DNA from: Bacillota bacterium
GTDB taxonomy: Bacteria > Bacillota > Dethiobacteria > DTU022
Assembly (NCBI GenBank): GCA_012797175.1
Contig: JAAZPQ010000194.1
Span: 294 to 64,293 of the forward strand
DNA: 64,000 nt
Reading direction: 5' to 3'
In this document: positions 11,110 to 63,476 of the stretch, piece by piece
How the letters are laid out: each line of letters starts with the position of its first letter
Numbering within the stretch: position 1 is the stretch's first letter
The notes under the pieces: model-generated
The model's input: the letters and a program-made list of their open reading frames with translations, nothing else
What the model was told of the DNA's origin: nothing
Database searches by the model: none
Program-made: the position numbers and the translations under genes

Positions 11110-12201
11110 GTGTCCGGTTTGTCTGAATTTCGCTGTGATCCTATCTCCGGGCGGCAGGTGATTATTGCTCCGCTGCGTTCCGGGCGGCCCGCGGCTTTTG
11201 CTAAAGCAGGCGGCGGGGACGGCCGCGGCAGCAAACCCGCTTATGTAGAAAACTGTCCTTTCTGTGCTGGCAATGAGCAGATGACGCCGCCGGAGCTTTT
11301 CGCACTGGGACGTAATGGAACGGCACCGGATACAGCAGGCTGGAGAGTCCGGGTAGTGCCGAATAAGTATCCGGCGGTGGAATTAAGAATGGTGGAGCAG
11401 ATCTCGGAGAATATCCCCGGTTACGGAGCTCACGAAGTACTGGTCGAGATCCCGGAACATAACCGCCACCCCGGCAGCTTTCCCCCGCGACAGATGGAGC
11501 TCGTTGTTGAAACCTATTACCGGCGCGGCCGGATGCTGGCCGATTATCCGGATCTGCGTTACCTGCAGATCTTCCGCAATTACCGCCGTGAAGCGGGTGC
11601 TTCGATTGAACATCCTCATTCCCAACTGCTCGCCCTCCCCTTTGTGCCGGTTGTTGTCCGCCGGGAGCTGGAGCGGTCTCAGAGCGCTTACCTTGCCGAG
11701 GGGGCCTGCCCCTTTTGCCAGCTGCTGGAAGAAGAGAGGCGCTTGGCACAGCGAATCATTGTTCAGAGCGATACTTACAGCGCCTTTATTCCTTTTGCTG
11801 CCCGCAGCCCTTTTGAGACCTGGATCCTGCCCCGGAGACACGCAGCTTCATTTTTAGAAACAAGCGCTTCTGAGCGGGCGGACCTGGCAGAGATCCTCGA
11901 AGAGCTGCTCCGGTTAATGGAGCATGCTCTTGGCGATCCGCCCTATAATTACTATCTGCACAGCGCACCCCTGCGCAGTGCGCCGTTGCCCTATTTTCAC
12001 TGGCATATTGAGCTGCTTCCGAAGGTCAGCATCGTTGCGGGGTTTGAAATGGGCAGCGGAGTATTTATCAATATCACCAAGCCTGAAGAAGCAGCCCGGT
12101 TCATTCAGGAGAAAGGAAGAGCCGATTATGAACAATCATGGCGGAAAGATCTACTTTATCCTTGCGCTGCACAATCATCAACCGGTAGGGAACCTGGATG
12201 A
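11110..12201 (+). CDS. Galactose-1-phosphate uridylyltransferase-like (HIT superfamily branch III) enzyme; candidate NDP-glucose phosphorylase
   Basis: Zinc-knuckle CPFCAGNE and active-site HPHSQ (the H-P-H motif of GalT). The ORF track starts at 10936; the conserved N-terminus (SEFRCDPISGRQVIIAP) suggests a GTG or TTG start at 11110-11119. Confidence 0.65.
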   Translation: MSGLSEFRCDPISGRQVIIAPLRSGRPAAFAKAGGGDGRGSKPAYVENCPFCAGNEQMTPPELFALGRNGTAPDTAGWRVRVVPNKYPAVELRMVEQISENIPGYGAHEVLVEIPEHNRHPGSFPPRQMELVVETYYRRGRMLADYPDLRYLQIFRNYRREAGASIEHPHSQLLALPFVPVVVRRELERSQSAYLAEGACPFCQLLEEERRLAQRIIVQSDTYSAFIPFAARSPFETWILPRRHAASFLETSASERADLAEILEELLRLMEHALGDPPYNYYLHSAPLRSAPLPYFHWHIELLPKVSIVAGFEMGSGVFINITKPEEAARFIQEKGRADYEQSWRKDLLYPCAAQSSTGREPG

Positions 12202-14194
12202 GGTTTTCGAGAGAAGTTATCTGCAGACTTACGAGCCGTTCATTGCGGTTCTGGAGCGCTTTTCCGGCATCAGGGTAGCGCTGCATTACTCCGGCAGTCT
12301 TCTGGACTGGCTGGTTGAAAAAAGACCTGATTTTATCAGGCGCCTGAAAAGGCTTGTCGACGGTGGCCGGGTGGAGATTCTCGGGGGAGCCTATTACGAG
12401 CCGATTCTCCCGGCGATCCCGGATGAGGATAAGATTGGCCAGATCTGCCTGTTGACACACCGGCTGCAAGAGCTGTTTGGAGTGGAGCCGCGCGGGATGT
12501 GGCTGGCAGAGCGGGTCTGGGAACCGCACCTGCCCCGTCCAATCAATCAAGCCGGAATTGATTATCTCGCCGTGGACGATACCCATTTTCACGATGTCGG
12601 CTATACGAATCTGGACCACTATTACAGGACTGAAGAAGAGGGTTACCCTCTAGATCTCTTTCCGATCAACGAAGAGCTGCGCTACCTGATCCCCTTCAAG
12701 GCTCCCGAGGAGACAATCTCTTATTTCAAGGAGCACCGGGATGAGCAGCAGCGTCTTTTTGTGCTGGCGGACGACGGTGAAAAATTTGGTGGATGGCCGG
12801 GGACCTACGAGTCGGTCTACGAAAAGGGCTGGCTTGAAGAATTTTTTACTCTTTTACAAGAGCAGGAAGATTGGCTGCAGATGGTTACTTTTGAAGATTA
12901 TCGCCGCCTCTTTTCGCCGTGTGGGCCGGTCTATCTGCCGACGGGGTCCTACCGCGAAATGAAGGAGTGGTCCGGTGGTTTCTGGCGCAACTTTTTTAAC
13001 CGCTATCCTGAAAGTAACCGGATGCACAAAAAGATGCTGGCGGTGCGTAAGCGCTGGGAATCTCTTCCAGAAGGAGAGCCCCGTGAGCAGGCGCAGCGGC
13101 TCCTTTGGGCGGGTCAGTGCAACTGCGCCTACTGGCATGGTGTCTTCGGCGGCCTCTACCTGAACTTTTTACGTGCCGCCGTCTGGCAGAAGTTGTTGCA
13201 GGCTGAGAAGATGATCGATGAGCAGCTGCAGGCGCCGCCGTATCTACTGCTGCAGCGCGGTGATTACGGTTACAGCGGGGCGGAAGAGATCTATATCTCT
13301 ACCGATCGTCTCAGCCTTCTCTTTTCGCCGCAACTCGGCGGTAGCCTGTGGGAGCTTTCATGGAAACCGGCGGCGGTAAACCTTCTCGATACCCTTACCC
13401 GCCGCCCCGAAGCATATCACCAGGAATATCTGGAACAGGCGGAGGCGCCGCGCGGGTCCGGAGAGCAGGCTACTTCGATTCATCACCTGCGGGCGGTTAA
13501 GGAAGAGGGTATCCTGGAGCATCTCTTTTACGATCCCTATCCCCGCGGAGCCTTGATCGAACACTTTTTTGAAGAAGGCGGCTCTCTGGAAGAATTTGAA
13601 AAGGGAAGCATCCGGGAGCAGGGTGATTTTTTAATGCAGCCAGCCGAGGTAGAGTTAGAGCGGCTGCCGGATCCCGGTGAGGGGGAAGGGGTGCAGATAA
13701 CTTTTCAGCGGGAGGGGCGGCTTAAAGAAAACTTACCCCTGCTTCTGAAAAAAATAGTGACCGTCTACGCGGGGAAAGATCGCTTTCAAATAGAGTATCA
13801 CCTGGTCAACCGGGGTAAAGATGACGTGGTGCTTTGCTTCGGGATAGAGTTTAACCTTGCTTTTCTTTCCGGGTCCGACGATGACCGTTACTACGTTATC
13901 CCTGGGCGCGAGCTGGAGGATCGAAGAGTAGGTTCCCGCGGGACTGAAGAAGCGGTGCCAGAACTTTCGCTGGTTGATCGTCGGCGCAATCTCAGCCTAG
14001 CTCTTTGCTGGAGTCGGCCAGCCTTACTCTGGCGAATGCCGGTGGAGGCGATCTCGCTTTCAGAGGGCGGCCTGGAACGTTCGTACCAGCAGTCGCTTCT
14101 CTTGCCGAGTTGGGATTTTTACCTGGCCCCCGGTGAAAGCGGCACCGTCAATTTGCATTTGCAATTTTCCGGGGCTGCTGAAAGGCAGCCATAG
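12128..14194 (+). CDS. Glycoside hydrolase family 57, alpha-amylase/4-alpha-glucanotransferase-like (large form, about 690 aa)
   Basis: MNNHGGKIYFILALHNHQPVGN is the GH57 N-terminus, with a long C-terminal extension. The ORF track begins at 11924, but ATG 12128 has the RBS GGAGAAAGGAAG. It overlaps the tail of the GalT-like ORF by about 74 nt. Confidence 0.7.
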   Translation: MNNHGGKIYFILALHNHQPVGNLDEVFERSYLQTYEPFIAVLERFSGIRVALHYSGSLLDWLVEKRPDFIRRLKRLVDGGRVEILGGAYYEPILPAIPDEDKIGQICLLTHRLQELFGVEPRGMWLAERVWEPHLPRPINQAGIDYLAVDDTHFHDVGYTNLDHYYRTEEEGYPLDLFPINEELRYLIPFKAPEETISYFKEHRDEQQRLFVLADDGEKFGGWPGTYESVYEKGWLEEFFTLLQEQEDWLQMVTFEDYRRLFSPCGPVYLPTGSYREMKEWSGGFWRNFFNRYPESNRMHKKMLAVRKRWESLPEGEPREQAQRLLWAGQCNCAYWHGVFGGLYLNFLRAAVWQKLLQAEKMIDEQLQAPPYLLLQRGDYGYSGAEEIYISTDRLSLLFSPQLGGSLWELSWKPAAVNLLDTLTRRPEAYHQEYLEQAEAPRGSGEQATSIHHLRAVKEEGILEHLFYDPYPRGALIEHFFEEGGSLEEFEKGSIREQGDFLMQPAEVELERLPDPGEGEGVQITFQREGRLKENLPLLLKKIVTVYAGKDRFQIEYHLVNRGKDDVVLCFGIEFNLAFLSGSDDDRYYVIPGRELEDRRVGSRGTEEAVPELSLVDRRRNLSLALCWSRPALLWRMPVEAISLSEGGLERSYQQSLLLPSWDFYLAPGESGTVNLHLQFSGAAERQP

Positions 14195-50917: not shown

Positions 50918-51094
50918 AAGAAAGGCCGCCAGCGCGCTTGCTAACGGTTAAAGTTCAGGTTAGCTTACCGGCAAAGAAGGAAAGGCAAATAAAGAGTATA
51001 TCTGATGAGATAATTTTTATTAAGCAGGAATTGGCGAACTTTTGTTGAAGTTAAAACTTAGTTGAAGTTACTGGGTACAAGTAAGTAATTTACG

Positions 51095-51250
51095 GGATTT
51101 AGTTCAGGGAAGCCGGTGCAAATCCGGCGCGGTCCCGCCACTGTGAGGGGAATCGGCCCTGCATGATGCCACTGTCACTATTGGATGATGGGAAGGCGCA
51201 GTGCTGAAAAGAACCCAAGCCAGGAGACCTACTATTTCCCGCTGGTTACA
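51095..51250 (+). promoter_or_regulatory. Cobalamin (adenosylcobalamin/B12) riboswitch aptamer
   Basis: The conserved blocks are readable in order: AGGGAAG, GGTGCAAATCC, CCCGCCACTGTGA (B12 box), GGGAAGGC and GCCAGGAGACCT. A possible promoter lies upstream: -35 TTGAAG near 51062 and -10 TAATTT near 51086. Confidence 0.85.
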
Positions 51251-56874: not shown

Positions 56875-56903
56875 TTGCCAAGGCGTCTTCTTTCTTGCTA
56901 TAA
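56875..56903 (+). promoter_or_regulatory. Putative sigma-A-type promoter for the selA operon
   Basis: -35 TTGCCA (56875-56880), a 17-nt spacer, then -10 TATAAT (56898-56903). Confidence 0.35.
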
Positions 56904-56940
56904 TCTTATAAGCAATTAAATTTTGAAACGGAGGTTGCCC

Positions 56941-58371
56941 GTGGCTGATTTACACCCTATCCTGCGCGAGTTGCCTGCGGTGGACCGGTTGCTGAAGGAA
57001 CCGGCTCTTGGTGAATTGCTCGAGCGGTTACCGCGCCGGTTGGTTCTGGCCGCGGCCCAGGAAACACTGCAGTCTTATCGACAGAAAATTTACGCCAGCA
57101 GCAAAACCGGCCAACCTGTTACCGGCCTGGACCTTTCTCCCGCTGTGCTGGCCCGTGAAGCGGCGGCGCTGGCCCTGAGCCAGTCTACGCCGAGCCTGAG
57201 GCCGGTCATAAATGCTACCGGGGTTGTTCTCCATACCAACCTGGGGAGAGCACCCCTGGCCGCGGCGGCGGCGGAAGCGGTAGCTGGAATCATGGAGCAT
57301 TACTGCAACCTGGAGATCGACCTGGAAGAAGGCGTGCGCAGTTCACGGCAGGCCCATCTGGAGGGGCTGCTCTGTGATCTGACCGGAGCCGAAGCAGCGG
57401 TAGTGGTGAATAACAATGCCGCTGCCGTTTTTCTGCTTTTGAACAGCTGTGCGACTGGCAAAGAGGTGATTGTTTCGCGGGGGCAGCTGGTGGAGATCGG
57501 CGGCTCCTTCAGGCTTCCCGAGGTGATGGCGGCCAGCGGTGCCCGCCTCGTGGAGGTAGGGACAACGAATAAGACCTACATACGTGATTACGAGATGGCG
57601 ATTAGTGACGATACCGTAGCCCTGATGAAGGTTCATCCCAGCAATTATCACCTGGTTGGCTTTACCACTTCGGTTGAAACCGCTGACTTGGCCTCCCTGG
57701 CGCATGACCGTAATCTACTGGCCATCGAGGACCTGGGCAGCGGTCTCCTCTTTGATCTAACCAGGTACGGGCTTCCCCCGGAACCGCGCGTTCAAAATAG
57801 TATTGCCGCTGGGATAGACCTGGTTGCCTTTAGCGGGGATAAACTGCTTGGAGGGCCGCAGGCAGGGATCATTGTCGGGCGGCATGAGCTTATCCAGAGG
57901 ATCCGCAGTAACCAGTTGGCCCGGATGTTACGGGTGGATAAACTGACAGTGGCCGCTCTTGAAGCCACCCTGCGTCTTTATCTGGAAGAAGAGAAGGCGC
58001 TTCAAGAAATACCGGTCTGGCGAGCGCTGACGATGCCACTTTCCCAGCTGCTGGAGCGGGTCGAAACCCTGGCTGTACTACTTCAAGATTACTTTGGTAA
58101 AGAGGGGGTTATCCTCTGGGAAGGTAGCTCCCGGGTCGGCGGCGGCAGCCTGCCTACGGCGGAGCTGCCGACAGTACTTCTTTCTTTACAGGTGCCCCAC
58201 CTGGAATCATCCGAGCTGGCCAGGCGCCTGCGCTGCGGCGACCCGCCGGTGATGGTGCGGCTGCAGCAGGAGAGGTTGCTGCTGGATCTGCGCACGGTTA
58301 ATCCGGAGCAGGACGGATTGCTTCTTAAAGCCATTCTTGCCGCCGTGGGGATGGACGGTCCTGAGAAATGA
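56941..58371 (+). CDS. selA: L-seryl-tRNA(Sec) selenium transferase
   Basis: PAVDRLL N-terminus and the PLP-lysine motif SGDKLLGGPQAG. GTG 56941 follows GGAGG; the ORF track starts at 56923. Confidence 0.85.
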   Translation: MADLHPILRELPAVDRLLKEPALGELLERLPRRLVLAAAQETLQSYRQKIYASSKTGQPVTGLDLSPAVLAREAAALALSQSTPSLRPVINATGVVLHTNLGRAPLAAAAAEAVAGIMEHYCNLEIDLEEGVRSSRQAHLEGLLCDLTGAEAAVVVNNNAAAVFLLLNSCATGKEVIVSRGQLVEIGGSFRLPEVMAASGARLVEVGTTNKTYIRDYEMAISDDTVALMKVHPSNYHLVGFTTSVETADLASLAHDRNLLAIEDLGSGLLFDLTRYGLPPEPRVQNSIAAGIDLVAFSGDKLLGGPQAGIIVGRHELIQRIRSNQLARMLRVDKLTVAALEATLRLYLEEEKALQEIPVWRALTMPLSQLLERVETLAVLLQDYFGKEGVILWEGSSRVGGGSLPTAELPTVLLSLQVPHLESSELARRLRCGDPPVMVRLQQERLLLDLRTVNPEQDGLLLKAILAAVGMDGPEK

Positions 58372-58432: not shown

Positions 58433-60352
58433 TTGGAACATCTTATTATCGGGACTGCCGGGCATGTCGATCATGGCAAAACCGTTTTGATCAGGGCACT
58501 TACCGGGGTCGATACCGACCGTCTGCGGGAAGAAAAGAAGCGCGGCATCTCCATTGATCTCGGGTTTGCCCCCCTTGAGCTTCCTGGCGGCCGCCTGGCC
58601 GGGATTGTCGATGTCCCGGGCCACGAGCGTTTTATCCATAATATGCTTGCCGGGGCCGCCGGGATGGACCTGGTTCTGCTGGTGGTTGATGCTACCGAAG
58701 GGGTTATGCCGCAAACGAAGGAGCATCTGCAGATATTACAGCTTTTAGGATTGGAAAAAGGGATCGTCGTCATTACCAAGACTGACCTGGTTGACGAAGA
58801 GTGGCAGGAACTTATCCAGGAGGAGATCTCCGCGGAGCTGGAAGGGACCTTTCTTGCCGATGCTCCTATCCACGCCGTCTCTGCTTTTACCGGCGAAGGT
58901 ATTGACGAACTGAAAGAGCGGATCAGTTCGGCTACCCTTGAGCTGTCTCCCCGGGATTCGTCGGGGCCGCTGCGGTTGCCGGTGGATCGTTCTTTTACTA
59001 TCGCCGGCTTTGGTACCGTGATTACCGGAACACTTTTCCGCGGGAGCGTCCGGGAAGGCGATAGAGTTGAGATTGTTCCATCCGGCCTGGAGGCGCGCGT
59101 GCGCAACATTCAGGTTCATGAGCGTAACCGGCAAGAAGCCCGGGCCGGACAGCGGGTGGCGTTAAACCTGGCCGGAATTGAAAAGGCAGAAGTCCGGCGC
59201 GGCAACGTTATCGCCTCGCCCGGCTACTACCAACCGACAAAGCTTCTCGACGCTTCGCTTTCGCTGCTGCCAGGAGCTCCCCGGCCGCTTAAAAATTTGG
59301 ATCCGGTTCACTTATTTTTGGGAACCGCCCGGGTGGTGGCGCGCCTGTTGCTGCTTGATTGCGATGAGCTCAGGCCGGGTGAAAAATGCTTCGTTCAGTG
59401 CCGCCTTAACCACCCCCTGGTAGCAGACCGGGCCGACCGTTTTATTATCCGTTCATACTCACCGATGACCACGATTGGGGGAGGGCGGGTGCTCGACCCC
59501 GCTCCGGCACGGCATCGCCGTTTTCGCCGGGCCTCTTTTGCACACCTTGAAGATATGGAGCAGGACCCGGAGGCGGGAGGAGACGAGGCTTTCATCTACC
59601 AGAAACTATCCGGCCTGCTTATCGCCGACCCGGCTCACCTGGCCCGGGAGACTCGCCTGGACGAGAAGCGGCTGCATGATATCCTTAAGCGGCTAACCCA
59701 AAAAGGGGTTGTCGAGAAGCTTGGCCAAAGCTATCTTACCCGGAAGTGCTTTGAAGAATGGGAACGCCGACTGTTGCACGAAGTAGAAGAATATCATCGT
59801 GATCATCCCTTGCTACCGGGTATCTCCCGGGCACGGTTAAAGGGAGCCTTGCCTCGTGAACTGGGCTTGCGGGAATATGACCTTTTTCTAGAGCGGCTAC
59901 AGGAGCAGGGGCAGGTCGTGCTGCAAGGAGATCTGGTCAGCCGGAAAGGTTTTACTCCCAGGCCTTCTACGCAAGAGCAGGCGCAGCTTGCACGTTTAAC
60001 GGAAGTGTATGCCGGGGCCTTGTTCCAGCCTCCCACGGTTAAGGAGGCACTCTCCCGGGCGGGGATTGAAAGCCAGCAGCCGGAAGACTATTACAGCTAC
60101 CTGGTAAACCGCGGCCAGCTGGTGAAAATAAATGACGAGCTTTATTTTCACCGGGAGGCCTACGATGAAGCGGTTGAGCTGCTGCGCGCTCATTTCACTA
60201 CTGCCGATACAATTACCCTGGCCCAGTTTAGAGACCTTACCGGCAGTTCGCGGAAGATCGTGCAGCCGTTACTCGAGCATTTCGACTATTTAAAGCTGAC
60301 CCGCCGCGTCGGCGATCACCGCGTCCCCGTGAAACTGTTAAACCATGGCTAG
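58433..60352 (+). CDS. selB: Selenocysteine-specific translation elongation factor SelB
   Basis: GTAGHVDHGKT (G1) and DVPGHE (G3) motifs, with a long C-terminal winged-helix extension. It overlaps the selA stop. The start is probably TTG 58433 (MEHLIIGTAGHVDHGKT). Confidence 0.85.
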   Translation: MEHLIIGTAGHVDHGKTVLIRALTGVDTDRLREEKKRGISIDLGFAPLELPGGRLAGIVDVPGHERFIHNMLAGAAGMDLVLLVVDATEGVMPQTKEHLQILQLLGLEKGIVVITKTDLVDEEWQELIQEEISAELEGTFLADAPIHAVSAFTGEGIDELKERISSATLELSPRDSSGPLRLPVDRSFTIAGFGTVITGTLFRGSVREGDRVEIVPSGLEARVRNIQVHERNRQEARAGQRVALNLAGIEKAEVRRGNVIASPGYYQPTKLLDASLSLLPGAPRPLKNLDPVHLFLGTARVVARLLLLDCDELRPGEKCFVQCRLNHPLVADRADRFIIRSYSPMTTIGGGRVLDPAPARHRRFRRASFAHLEDMEQDPEAGGDEAFIYQKLSGLLIADPAHLARETRLDEKRLHDILKRLTQKGVVEKLGQSYLTRKCFEEWERRLLHEVEEYHRDHPLLPGISRARLKGALPRELGLREYDLFLERLQEQGQVVLQGDLVSRKGFTPRPSTQEQAQLARLTEVYAGALFQPPTVKEALSRAGIESQQPEDYYSYLVNRGQLVKINDELYFHREAYDEAVELLRAHFTTADTITLAQFRDLTGSSRKIVQPLLEHFDYLKLTRRVGDHRVPVKLLNHG

Positions 60353-60407
60353 TGCCCGGTCCTAAAATTTACTAACTTAAAAAAAGACCAGGCGGGAGGT
60401 GTTAGCT

Positions 60408-61457
60408 ATGAAAAAGGAAAAGATCCGGCTTACATCGATGACCTCAAGCGCTGGGTGAGCGGCAAAAATTGGGCCTGAAGCCCTGGCACAGGTTCTGTGC
60501 TGTTTACCGTCTGTCGACGATCCGGCTTATCTAAACCGGCATCAGCACTATGCTGATGCCGGAGTCTACCGCCTCTCTGAAGAGATGGCCTTGGTCCAGA
60601 CTATTGATTTTTTCACTCCGGTGGTTGACGATCCCTATCTTTTCGGGCAAATTGCGGCGGCCAATGCTCTCAGCGATCTTTACACCATGGGGGCAAAGCC
60701 ACTGACGGCTTTAAACCTGGTCTGCTTTCCATCTGAGAAACAGCCTTTGAATATATTGGCGGAGATTTTGCGTGGCGGATTTGATAAAATTAGGGAATCC
60801 GGGGCGGTCTTGATTGGGGGTCACAGCGTTGAAGATGACGAACCGAAGTACGGGCTGGCCGCGACCGGGGTGGTTGACCCGCGGCAGATGATTACCAGCG
60901 CCGGTGCTCGTCCCGGCGATCGGCTCTTTTTAACTAAACCCCTCGGCAGCGGCATTATCACCACCGCGATAAAGGGCGACCAGCTCACCGTTCAGGAGGC
61001 CGGGGAGGTCTTGCAGGGAATGGCTGCTCTCAATGCTGCTGCTGCGGAGGCAATGGTTGAGGCCGGGGCCTCTGCGGCCACCGATATTACTGGTTTTGGC
61101 CTGCTTGGCCATCTACATGAGATGCTTGTCGCCAGCGGCGCCGGAGCTAAAATATATCGTAAAGCGGTTCCTGTTTACCACGGGACCGGGGAGATGGCGG
61201 CGAAAGGACTGATACCCGGGGGAGCCTACCGTAATCTGAGCTATTTTCAAGGCTCGGTTTACTGGGCGGGAGAGGAGCAGAAAAAGGAGGAATGCCTCTT
61301 AATCTTTTTTGATCCTCAGACTTCGGGGGGCCTATTGATTGCCGTGCCGCCAGAGCGCGCTGCAGCTTTGAGCGCAGCTTTGGAAAAGCGGAATCTCAGG
61401 AAAGATTATATCGGGGAGATTACCGCGGACGCCCCGGGGAAAATAACCGTATCTTGA
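60408..61457 (+). CDS. selD: Selenide, water dikinase SelD, with an in-frame UGA (selenocysteine) at 60456-60458
   Basis: ATG 60408 follows GGGAGGTG. Translation reads MKKEKIRLTSMTSSAG-U-AAKIGPEALAQVL, aligning with E. coli SelD [21 protein letters not shown] at the Cys/Sec17 position. Downstream TIDFFTPVVDDPYLFGQIAAANALSDLYTMGAKP matches SelD strongly. The ORF track reports only the part after the TGA (60585..61457). Confidence 0.8.
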
Positions 61458-62303: not shown

Positions 62304-63476
62304 ATGCGGGGTATGAAGATGACTACCGAAAACCAAACTTTTGCTGAAAAGTTTGACCTGCTGGGTTGCATTCAATGCGGGCGGTGTACCGGCGGTTGCC
62401 CGGTAACGGTGCGGACAAATTTAAATGTACGCCGTTTTGTCTATGACGCTTACAATGAAGATCTGCTGGACGAGCTCTCCAGGATGGCCGAAATTTGGGA
62501 CTGCACCGGCTGTCATACCTGCGCGGTCCGCTGCCCAAAGGGGCTGAAGCCACTGGAGGTATTGATCGGCCTGCGGTCGCTCGTTGTCGAAAGCGGCAAA
62601 ACCCAGCCAACGGTGCGGGATGCCCTCGAGAGCACTTTTATGGAAGGCAATCCCTGGGAAAAGCCGAGAGCCACCCGCGGTGATTGGATGGAAGGATTGG
62701 ATGTAAAAATTGCTCAGCCTGATCAGAGCGTCGAAAACCTGTTCTTTGTCTGCTGTACGATCGCCTACGATCCGCGTGTCAAGATCGTTGCTCAAAACAT
62801 GGTCCGCCTGCTTGAGAAAGCCGGTGTAGATTACGCGTTTCTCGGTGAAGATGAATCTTGTTGCGGCAGCGAGGTTTTCACCCTTGGTGAAGACGGCCTT
62901 TTTGAAATGATTGTCGAGGATAATACAGAACTGTTAAATGAATACCAGGCTAAACGGATCGTGGCCCTTTCGCCGCATTGTTTTACTACTTTCAAGACTC
63001 ATTACCCCGATTTAAACAAACCGGTACTTCATTATACTCAACTGCTGGCGGAGCTACTGGAGCAGGAGAAGCTGGTTTTCAAGAACGGCCTGGCAAAAAA
63101 GATTGTTTTTCATGACCCCTGCTACCTGGGCAAGCAGAGCGGAGTGTTTGATGAACCGCGCCGCTTGTTGAAAGCCATTGAGGGAGTGGAACTGGTCGAA
63201 TTTAATCGGGCCCGTGAACGCAGCCTCTGCTGTGAGGGTGGTGGCGGGAAAATGTGGGTGGAATCTGAATCAAAAATAGAGCGCCTGGCCGAAACGCGAA
63301 TTAAAGATGCCCGCGCTCTGGAAGCCGATATCGTGGCGGTGGCTTGCCCCTTCTGTGTCCTAACCTTGGAAGATGCCGTGAAGGCATTGGGATATGAAGA
63401 GGAGATGCGGGTGGCTGAAATCATGGAGCTTTTGGGAGAGTTGGACGGAGCGCAGGATAAATCTAATTCCGCTTAG
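62304..63476 (+). CDS. (Fe-S)-binding oxidoreductase with two [4Fe-4S] CxxCxxCxxxCP motifs and two CCG domains (HdrD/GlcF/LutA-like)
   Basis: CIQCGRCTGGCP and CTGCHTCAVRCP ferredoxin motifs, plus CCG-type clusters (CCGSE.., CCEGGGG). It lies directly upstream of etfB. Confidence 0.7.
   Translation: MRGMKMTTENQTFAEKFDLLGCIQCGRCTGGCPVTVRTNLNVRRFVYDAYNEDLLDELSRMAEIWDCTGCHTCAVRCPKGLKPLEVLIGLRSLVVESGKTQPTVRDALESTFMEGNPWEKPRATRGDWMEGLDVKIAQPDQSVENLFFVCCTIAYDPRVKIVAQNMVRLLEKAGVDYAFLGEDESCCGSEVFTLGEDGLFEMIVEDNTELLNEYQAKRIVALSPHCFTTFKTHYPDLNKPVLHYTQLLAELLEQEKLVFKNGLAKKIVFHDPCYLGKQSGVFDEPRRLLKAIEGVELVEFNRARERSLCCEGGGGKMWVESESKIERLAETRIKDARALEADIVAVACPFCVLTLEDAVKALGYEEEMRVAEIMELLGELDGAQDKSNSA

Follow-up and report, generated by a model that had tools for sequence, protein, structure and literature searches.

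With high confidence, the selD gene at 60408-61457 of the window (the whole 64-kb stretch of DNA that was analysed) encodes a full-length selenophosphate synthetase in which the catalytic residue 17 is selenocysteine (Sec), specified by the UGA at 60456-60458. The right annotation for selD would then be 60408-61457 with Sec at codon 17. On this reading, selenocysteine is in use in an uncultured Dethiobacteria-like Bacillota lineage, whose SelD would require selenium for its own synthesis. The gene and its parts are located as follows.

60408 to 61457, plus strand: complete selD, with 349 codons before the stop; read as a selenide, water dikinase with Sec at residue 17
60394 to 60401, plus strand: Shine-Dalgarno site GGGAGGTG, read from the sequence, with a 6-nt spacer to the selD ATG at 60408
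60456 to 60458, plus strand: predicted Sec codon UGA (U17); its homologue in E. coli SelD is the catalytic Cys17
60585 to 61457, plus strand: truncated 290-aa ORF as gene callers give it, without the catalytic N-terminal loop

The selD start codon is the ATG at 60408-60410, and the terminal stop is the TGA at 61455-61457. Inside the gene there is a single in-frame TGA, located at 60456-60458 and corresponding to codon 17. The peptide at this codon is ...IRLTSMTSSAG-U-AAKIGPEALAQVL..., giving the reading U-AAKIGPEAL. The distance from 60408 to 60585 is 177 nt, or 59 codons, and the ATG at 60408 is in the same frame as the 60585-61457 ORF. A preliminary description of this DNA had placed the start, the in-frame TGA, and the shared frame at these positions, and every coordinate was reproduced from the sequence. 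It had also claimed that the ORF caller lost 59 codons of selD; the ORF list and the public gene calls do begin at the ATG at 60585.

For the profile searches, Cys was written at position 17 of SelD. The read-through product matched TIGR00476 with 369.7 bits (cutoff 125), residues 7-317 falling on profile positions 1-310 of 311, and NF002098 with 316.8 bits (cutoff 299) over residues 1-347. The families PF00586 (AIRS) and PF02769 (AIRS_C) both match the C-terminal 290 aa. In the PDB alignment, the catalytic loop S-A-G-U17-A-A-K20 aligns to G-A-G-C17-G-C-K20 of E. coli SelD, so that the TGA falls on Cys17, in agreement with the earlier assignment to the GAG-C-GCK loop; position 17 also falls on the Cys of the Aquifex aeolicus loop S-S-G-C-A-A-K (2yye). 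The protein keeps K20 and the motifs DAGVY, TIDFFTP, NALSD, and TDITGFGLLGH, which are aligned to the E. coli motifs. The metal- and ATP-binding Asp/Asn residues of E. coli SelD are D51, D68, N87, D91, and D227. A failure to align at the N-terminus had been named as a possible argument against the gene model; the alignment begins at residue 7 for TIGR00476 and at residue 2 for the E. coli structure 3u0o. On these matches, the product is identified as a full-length SelD, a selenophosphate synthetase of the PurM-like AIRS superfamily. The match of the read-through frame is far above chance, because the 59 upstream codons fit the SelD profile and the TGA is kept in relatives and in independent assemblies.

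For the conservation of the codon, we used the 80 loci that are the nearest homologues of selD in a species-level genome collection. TGA is present at the homologous codon in 77 of these, with the peptide conserved on both sides, so that most close relatives have Sec here, in line with the preliminary statement that many anaerobes do. The remaining three loci have Cys codons (TGT in two, TGC in one), and six more Cys-type SelD homologues were found beyond the 80 loci. Four independent metagenome assemblies share the same 261 nt around the selD TGA, and the first 183 nt of selD, TGA included, recur unchanged in two further assemblies. Among database SelD homologues, P0130 and P0131 have Leu (SSG-L-AAK) and Trp (GAG-W-ASK), respectively, where Sec or Cys is expected; for the Trp, the probable explanation is a TGA that was translated with the wrong genetic code.

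The truncated form of SelD is widespread in public data. The exact 290-aa protein is encoded on 89 public contigs, where it is named 'selenide,water dikinase', and the cluster to which it belongs has entries under the name Dethiobacteria bacterium. In the collections searched, the public gene calls of the window selD are the truncated form. In a collection of 5.8 billion proteins, about 110 of the best 120 homologues cover only 82-94% of the SelD query; truncation of SelD is therefore systematic. The truncated entries include NCBI nr/UniRef sequences from Dethiobacter sp. and Moorella mulderi, which start just after the Sec codon. Analyses built on such entries therefore miss the catalytic loop.

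Two short hairpins lie downstream of the UGA within the coding sequence.

60471 to 60483, plus strand: hairpin A, GGGC-CUGAA-GCCC, on the Gly-Pro-Glu-Ala codons
60485 to 60501, plus strand: hairpin B, proposed as the core of the SECIS; GGCACAG-GUU-CUGUGCU, a 7-bp stem whose loop, GUU, is at 60492-60494

The preliminary description had suggested folding 60459-60510 in search of a SECIS hairpin, and a conserved stem-loop was found within this stretch. The loop G and U of hairpin B fall at +37 and +38 when the U of the UGA is counted as +1. The folding energy of hairpin B in the window is -8.9 kcal/mol with z = -2.24, which is modest as a single-sequence score. We aligned 69 nt around the TGA from 77 Sec-type loci, including the window; the alignment is gap-free, and hairpins A and B occupy columns 22-34 and 36-52, respectively. 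For hairpin B alone, 76% of the cells are paired, and both-sided changes occur in five of the seven pairs. The model combining A and B has 72% of cells paired and a covariation score of 0.284, compared to at most 0.137 for slid controls, and none of 500 shuffles reached 0.284. Hairpin B holds most of this covariation signal. Its pair 39:49 is AU in 24 sequences, GC in 22, CG in 4, and UA in 4, and pair 42:46 is GC in 43 and AU in 14. At least six of the seven hairpin-B pairs are found in 44 of the 77 sequences, and the loop in those 44 is always GUN; the sequences without hairpin B are mainly Syntrophales-like, together with some Clostridium-like loci. The close relatives of the window retain both hairpins. 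In one locus (L001), a compensatory A-U to G-C change in the hairpin comes at the cost of a Cys-to-Arg substitution.

Sec-type and Cys-type genes were compared within one Desulfuromonadales-like clade that has the same peptide, LAQVLRQLP, at the hairpin. The Sec-type genes of this clade have all seven hairpin-B pairs in 14 of 14 cases, with energies of -11 to -14 kcal/mol, whereas the Cys-type loci L085, L086, L087, and L010, which encode the same or nearly the same peptide, have four to six of the seven pairs and energies of -0.4 to -9.5 kcal/mol. The mean hairpin-B energy is -2.4 kcal/mol in nine Cys-type loci and -10.8 kcal/mol in the Sec class with hairpin B; most of the Cys-type controls belong to a single clade and thus represent few independent events. 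Given that the pairing differs between Sec-type and Cys-type genes while the peptide is the same, hairpin B tracks the UGA and not the protein. A comparison of Sec-type and Cys-type sisters is a simple, reusable test that separates SECIS from coding constraint. Because hairpin B is conserved, covarying, and specific to Sec-type genes, we propose that it is the SECIS element of selD.

Searches of Rfam at gathering and at permissive thresholds gave no match to a SECIS family; the matches in the window were two chance hits and a cobalamin riboswitch located elsewhere. This riboswitch (RF00174, 105 bits, 51083-51250, plus strand) lies 5' of a DUF4430, CbiQ, ABC ATPase, and ECF-transporter cluster, and together they are a standard B12-regulated arrangement. 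The relatives fall into at least two hairpin arrangements, and for this reason RNAalifold found no common structure when applied to all 77 Sec-type sequences. For the 51 nt of the window, the RNAfold minimum free energy structure is a long, UGA-anchored hairpin. It was rejected as a candidate: in the alignment, 56% of its cells are paired, and its covariation score is 0.132, compared to slid controls of up to 0.140.

Hairpin A is weaker in the window (4 bp, -6.5 kcal/mol, z = -1.3). It is missing from several relatives that have hairpin B; in relatives lacking B it is dominant, and many of these have a strong version (GGUCC-GGG-GGACC), complete in about half. As the main SECIS element, hairpin A was rejected on account of its weakness in the window and its absence in several hairpin-B relatives; it is possibly a lower or auxiliary part of the SECIS. 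Compared to E. coli fdhF, the distance from the UGA to the loop is about 14 nt longer in selD, and hairpin A fills exactly this extra distance.

Two stronger inverted repeats are found nearby. A perfect 12-bp palindrome, CCGGCATCAGCA-cta-TGCTGATGCCGG, at 60536-60562 (plus strand) is placed within selD (codons 43-52), 78 nt 3' of the Sec UGA. Its RNA has a folding energy of -22.9 kcal/mol (z = -7.06), and no U-tract follows. It is identical in six assemblies of this lineage and weakens to -14.8 kcal/mol in L002, -11.1 kcal/mol in L093, and -9.2 kcal/mol in L001. The second inverted repeat, at 60113-60160 (plus strand), is located at the 3' end of selB (residues ~560-578, peptide LVKINDELYFHREA); it has a perfect 14-bp core stem and folds at -27.1 kcal/mol (z = -5.96). 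In relatives encoding the same peptide, this selB stem is not the best local fold. Neither repeat was retained as a candidate conserved structure, since the relatives do not keep them. One could imagine a bipartite SECIS, in which 60471-60483 is a folding spacer that returns the GGU loop to the canonical distance, and, separately, a role for the 60536-60562 hairpin in coupling successful Sec decoding to the translation or stability of the selD mRNA. We consider this scheme improbable; if it were true, the 60536-60562 hairpin would be a selenium-sensing switch for a self-dependent SelD.

Two further genes of the Sec machinery are the ORFs immediately 5' of selD, on the same strand.

56875 to 56904, plus strand: promoter-like site before selA, near-consensus sigma-70 with an extended -10 (TTGCCA, 18 nt, TG-TATAAT; 11 of 12 consensus matches)
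56941 to 58371, plus strand: selA, L-seryl-tRNA(Sec) selenium transferase, 476 aa (TIGR00474, 588.6 bits, cutoff 267.9; Pfam Se-cys_synth_N and SelA)
58433 to 60352, plus strand: selB, selenocysteine-specific elongation factor, 639 aa (TIGR00475, 386.2 bits, cutoff 242.25, profile positions 1-577 of 581)

The lengths given for selA and selB are those called on identical public contigs. The Pfam domains of SelB are GTP_EFTU, Beta-barrel_SelB, WHD_2nd_SelB, and WHD_3rd_SelB; the C-terminal winged-helix domains are the SECIS-binding part of a SelB. Judged by its consensus match, the site at 56875-56904 is the probable promoter of the selA-selB-selD genes, and given this promoter-like site before selA, the three genes probably form a single operon. 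ARAGORN detected no tRNA gene, including the gene for tRNA-Sec (selC), in the 64-kb window. On longer contigs, no tRNA gene was found within 10 kb on either side of selD, nor was selC found in L001 and L002. Since selC was not found within this reach, we infer the Sec-decoding ability of the genome from selA and selB only, and selC would presumably sit elsewhere in the genome.

The region 3' of selD contains, at 62304-63476 (plus strand), an HdrD/GlpC-like CCG-domain Fe-S protein. A longer contig (L081:12908-18157) extends past the window and continues with EtfB, EtfA, an HdrA-like flavoprotein (~670 aa), and FlpD/MvhD. Sec is frequent in the HdrA and GlpC families of anaerobes.

Within the window, TGA is the ordinary stop codon of 13 of the 45 long ORFs, selD itself included. 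For three further long ORFs with a terminal TGA, the in-frame extension beyond this stop has no family match, and a search for a second selenoprotein candidate in the window found none. The other TGA-interrupted candidates, at 4415, 12199, and 28106 (minus strand), were rejected as the ordinary stops of glycosyltransferase and GalT-like genes. A glycogen/sugar-nucleotide cluster at 3137-14194 (plus strand) comprises a GT4 glycosyltransferase, an NTP-transferase/phosphoglucomutase fusion, a GalT-like gene, and a GH57 amylase/glucanotransferase; the TGA stops of this cluster are ordinary.

The internal TGA of selD could be explained in other ways. A single base separates TGA from TGC or TGT, and Cys codons occur at this position in three of the 80 relatives; the TGA might thus stem from faulty sequencing or assembly, or from a recent mutation that turned a Cys codon into a stop and selD into a pseudogene. 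The preliminary description had itself named a sequencing error at 60456-60458 as grounds for abandoning the Sec reading. However, six independent assemblies, made from different samples, agree exactly around the TGA, the 77 loci with TGA at the same codon come from many orders, and a hairpin specific to Sec-type genes is kept downstream. An error or a pseudogene is effectively refuted, and we assign it a negligible probability. If the UGA were instead a true stop, the products would be a 16-residue peptide and a functional, N-terminally truncated SelD starting from the ATG at 60585. An in-frame ATG is indeed present there, and public pipelines call the 290-aa product; however, the 59 skipped codons are conserved as protein and fit the SelD profile from residue 7. 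The product starting at Met60 would be without its active site, because the skipped codons hold the Sec/Cys17-Lys20 loop and the DAGVY Asp motif. In addition, GAAGAG abuts the ATG at 60585 without spacing and is not a good ribosome-binding site, whereas the ATG at 60408 is preceded by the GGGAGGTG site. Termination followed by a restart is extremely unlikely.

The UGA might also be read as a standard amino acid (Cys, Trp, or Arg), either through near-cognate suppression or under a reassigned code. Sec-independent read-through of UGA has been proposed for the hymenopteran SPS1-UGA (PMC4561486), and the absence of selC from the window and from the 10 kb on either side of selD would fit such a reading. 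Against this reading, TGA is a normal stop in the window, and the extensions of the GT4 and GalT-like genes past their TGA have no family match. In addition, complete selA and selB genes are located in the same probable operon, and the hairpin after the UGA is specific to Sec-type genes. We regard decoding as a standard amino acid as very unlikely.

Returning to Sec as residue 17, the decoding of selD can be described as follows. SelB, carrying Sec-tRNA(Sec) and GTP, would bind the hairpin at 60485-60501 (apical A-[G]GUU[C]-U) with its C-terminal winged-helix domains, possibly assisted by the weaker hairpin at 60471-60483, and would deliver Sec as residue 17 to the ribosome paused at the UGA at 60456. 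Translation would then run on through AIRS and AIRS_C, the catalytic domains. The SelD product would make selenophosphate for SelA, creating a positive feedback loop; as the supplier of selenophosphate to SelA, SelD would be needed for its own synthesis. The selenium self-dependence of SelD synthesis is a long-discussed feedback loop.

Sec-containing SelD is textbook knowledge. Together with FdhA, SelD is one of the two most widespread bacterial selenoproteins (Zhang et al., PMC1794560). The same study counts SelD among the selenoproteins of Clostridia, Deltaproteobacteria, and other groups, and gives Sec-containing SelD for Haemophilus influenzae, Clostridioides difficile, Moorella thermoacetica, Geobacter, and Syntrophus (PMC1794560). 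Bacterial SECIS elements have been recovered in Sec-containing selD genes (Mariotti et al. 2015, PMC4561486).

Compared to E. coli SelD (3u0o), the window protein is aligned over residues 2-345 (E = 7e-69), with the catalytic loop, Lys20, and the Asp motifs kept. The E. coli enzyme is of the Cys type, with Cys17 where the window protein is read with Sec17, and the E. coli gene needs no SECIS. The alignment with A. aeolicus SelD (2yye, 2zod) extends over residues 5-340 (E = 4e-68). A. aeolicus belongs to another phylum; both proteins are of the Sec type, with the loop S-S-G-[U/C]-A-A-K, and the A. aeolicus structure has an engineered Cys at the Sec position.

The hairpins of E. coli fdhF and Moorella thermoacetica fdhA are SelB-binding SECIS elements. 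The fdhF SECIS has the apex GCA-GGUC-UGC, with the loop G and U at +23 and +24. Hairpin B of selD shares with these two elements a short stem, a loop starting G-G-U, and a location in the coding sequence 3' of the UGA; its apex, CA-GGUUC-UG, resembles GCA-GGUC-UGC of fdhF. The differences are that the loop G and U of selD, at +37 and +38, are about 14 nt farther from the UGA than those of fdhF, that no bulged U is evident in hairpin B, and that a second small hairpin fills the gap.

The closest known system is the class of Sec-containing bacterial SelD itself. The window protein belongs to the same family (TIGR00476), with the Sec position in the Gly-rich loop G-U-x-x-K; the genes are alike in the in-frame UGA and the stem-loop within the coding sequence, in the linkage to selA and selB, and in their truncation by gene callers. 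Nothing substantive differs, and the window copy comes from a metagenome-only, Dethiobacteria-like Bacillota lineage. Because the window selD agrees with this class in every feature that could be tested, a Sec-type selD with its SECIS is a correct but ordinary finding here, one that is already known.
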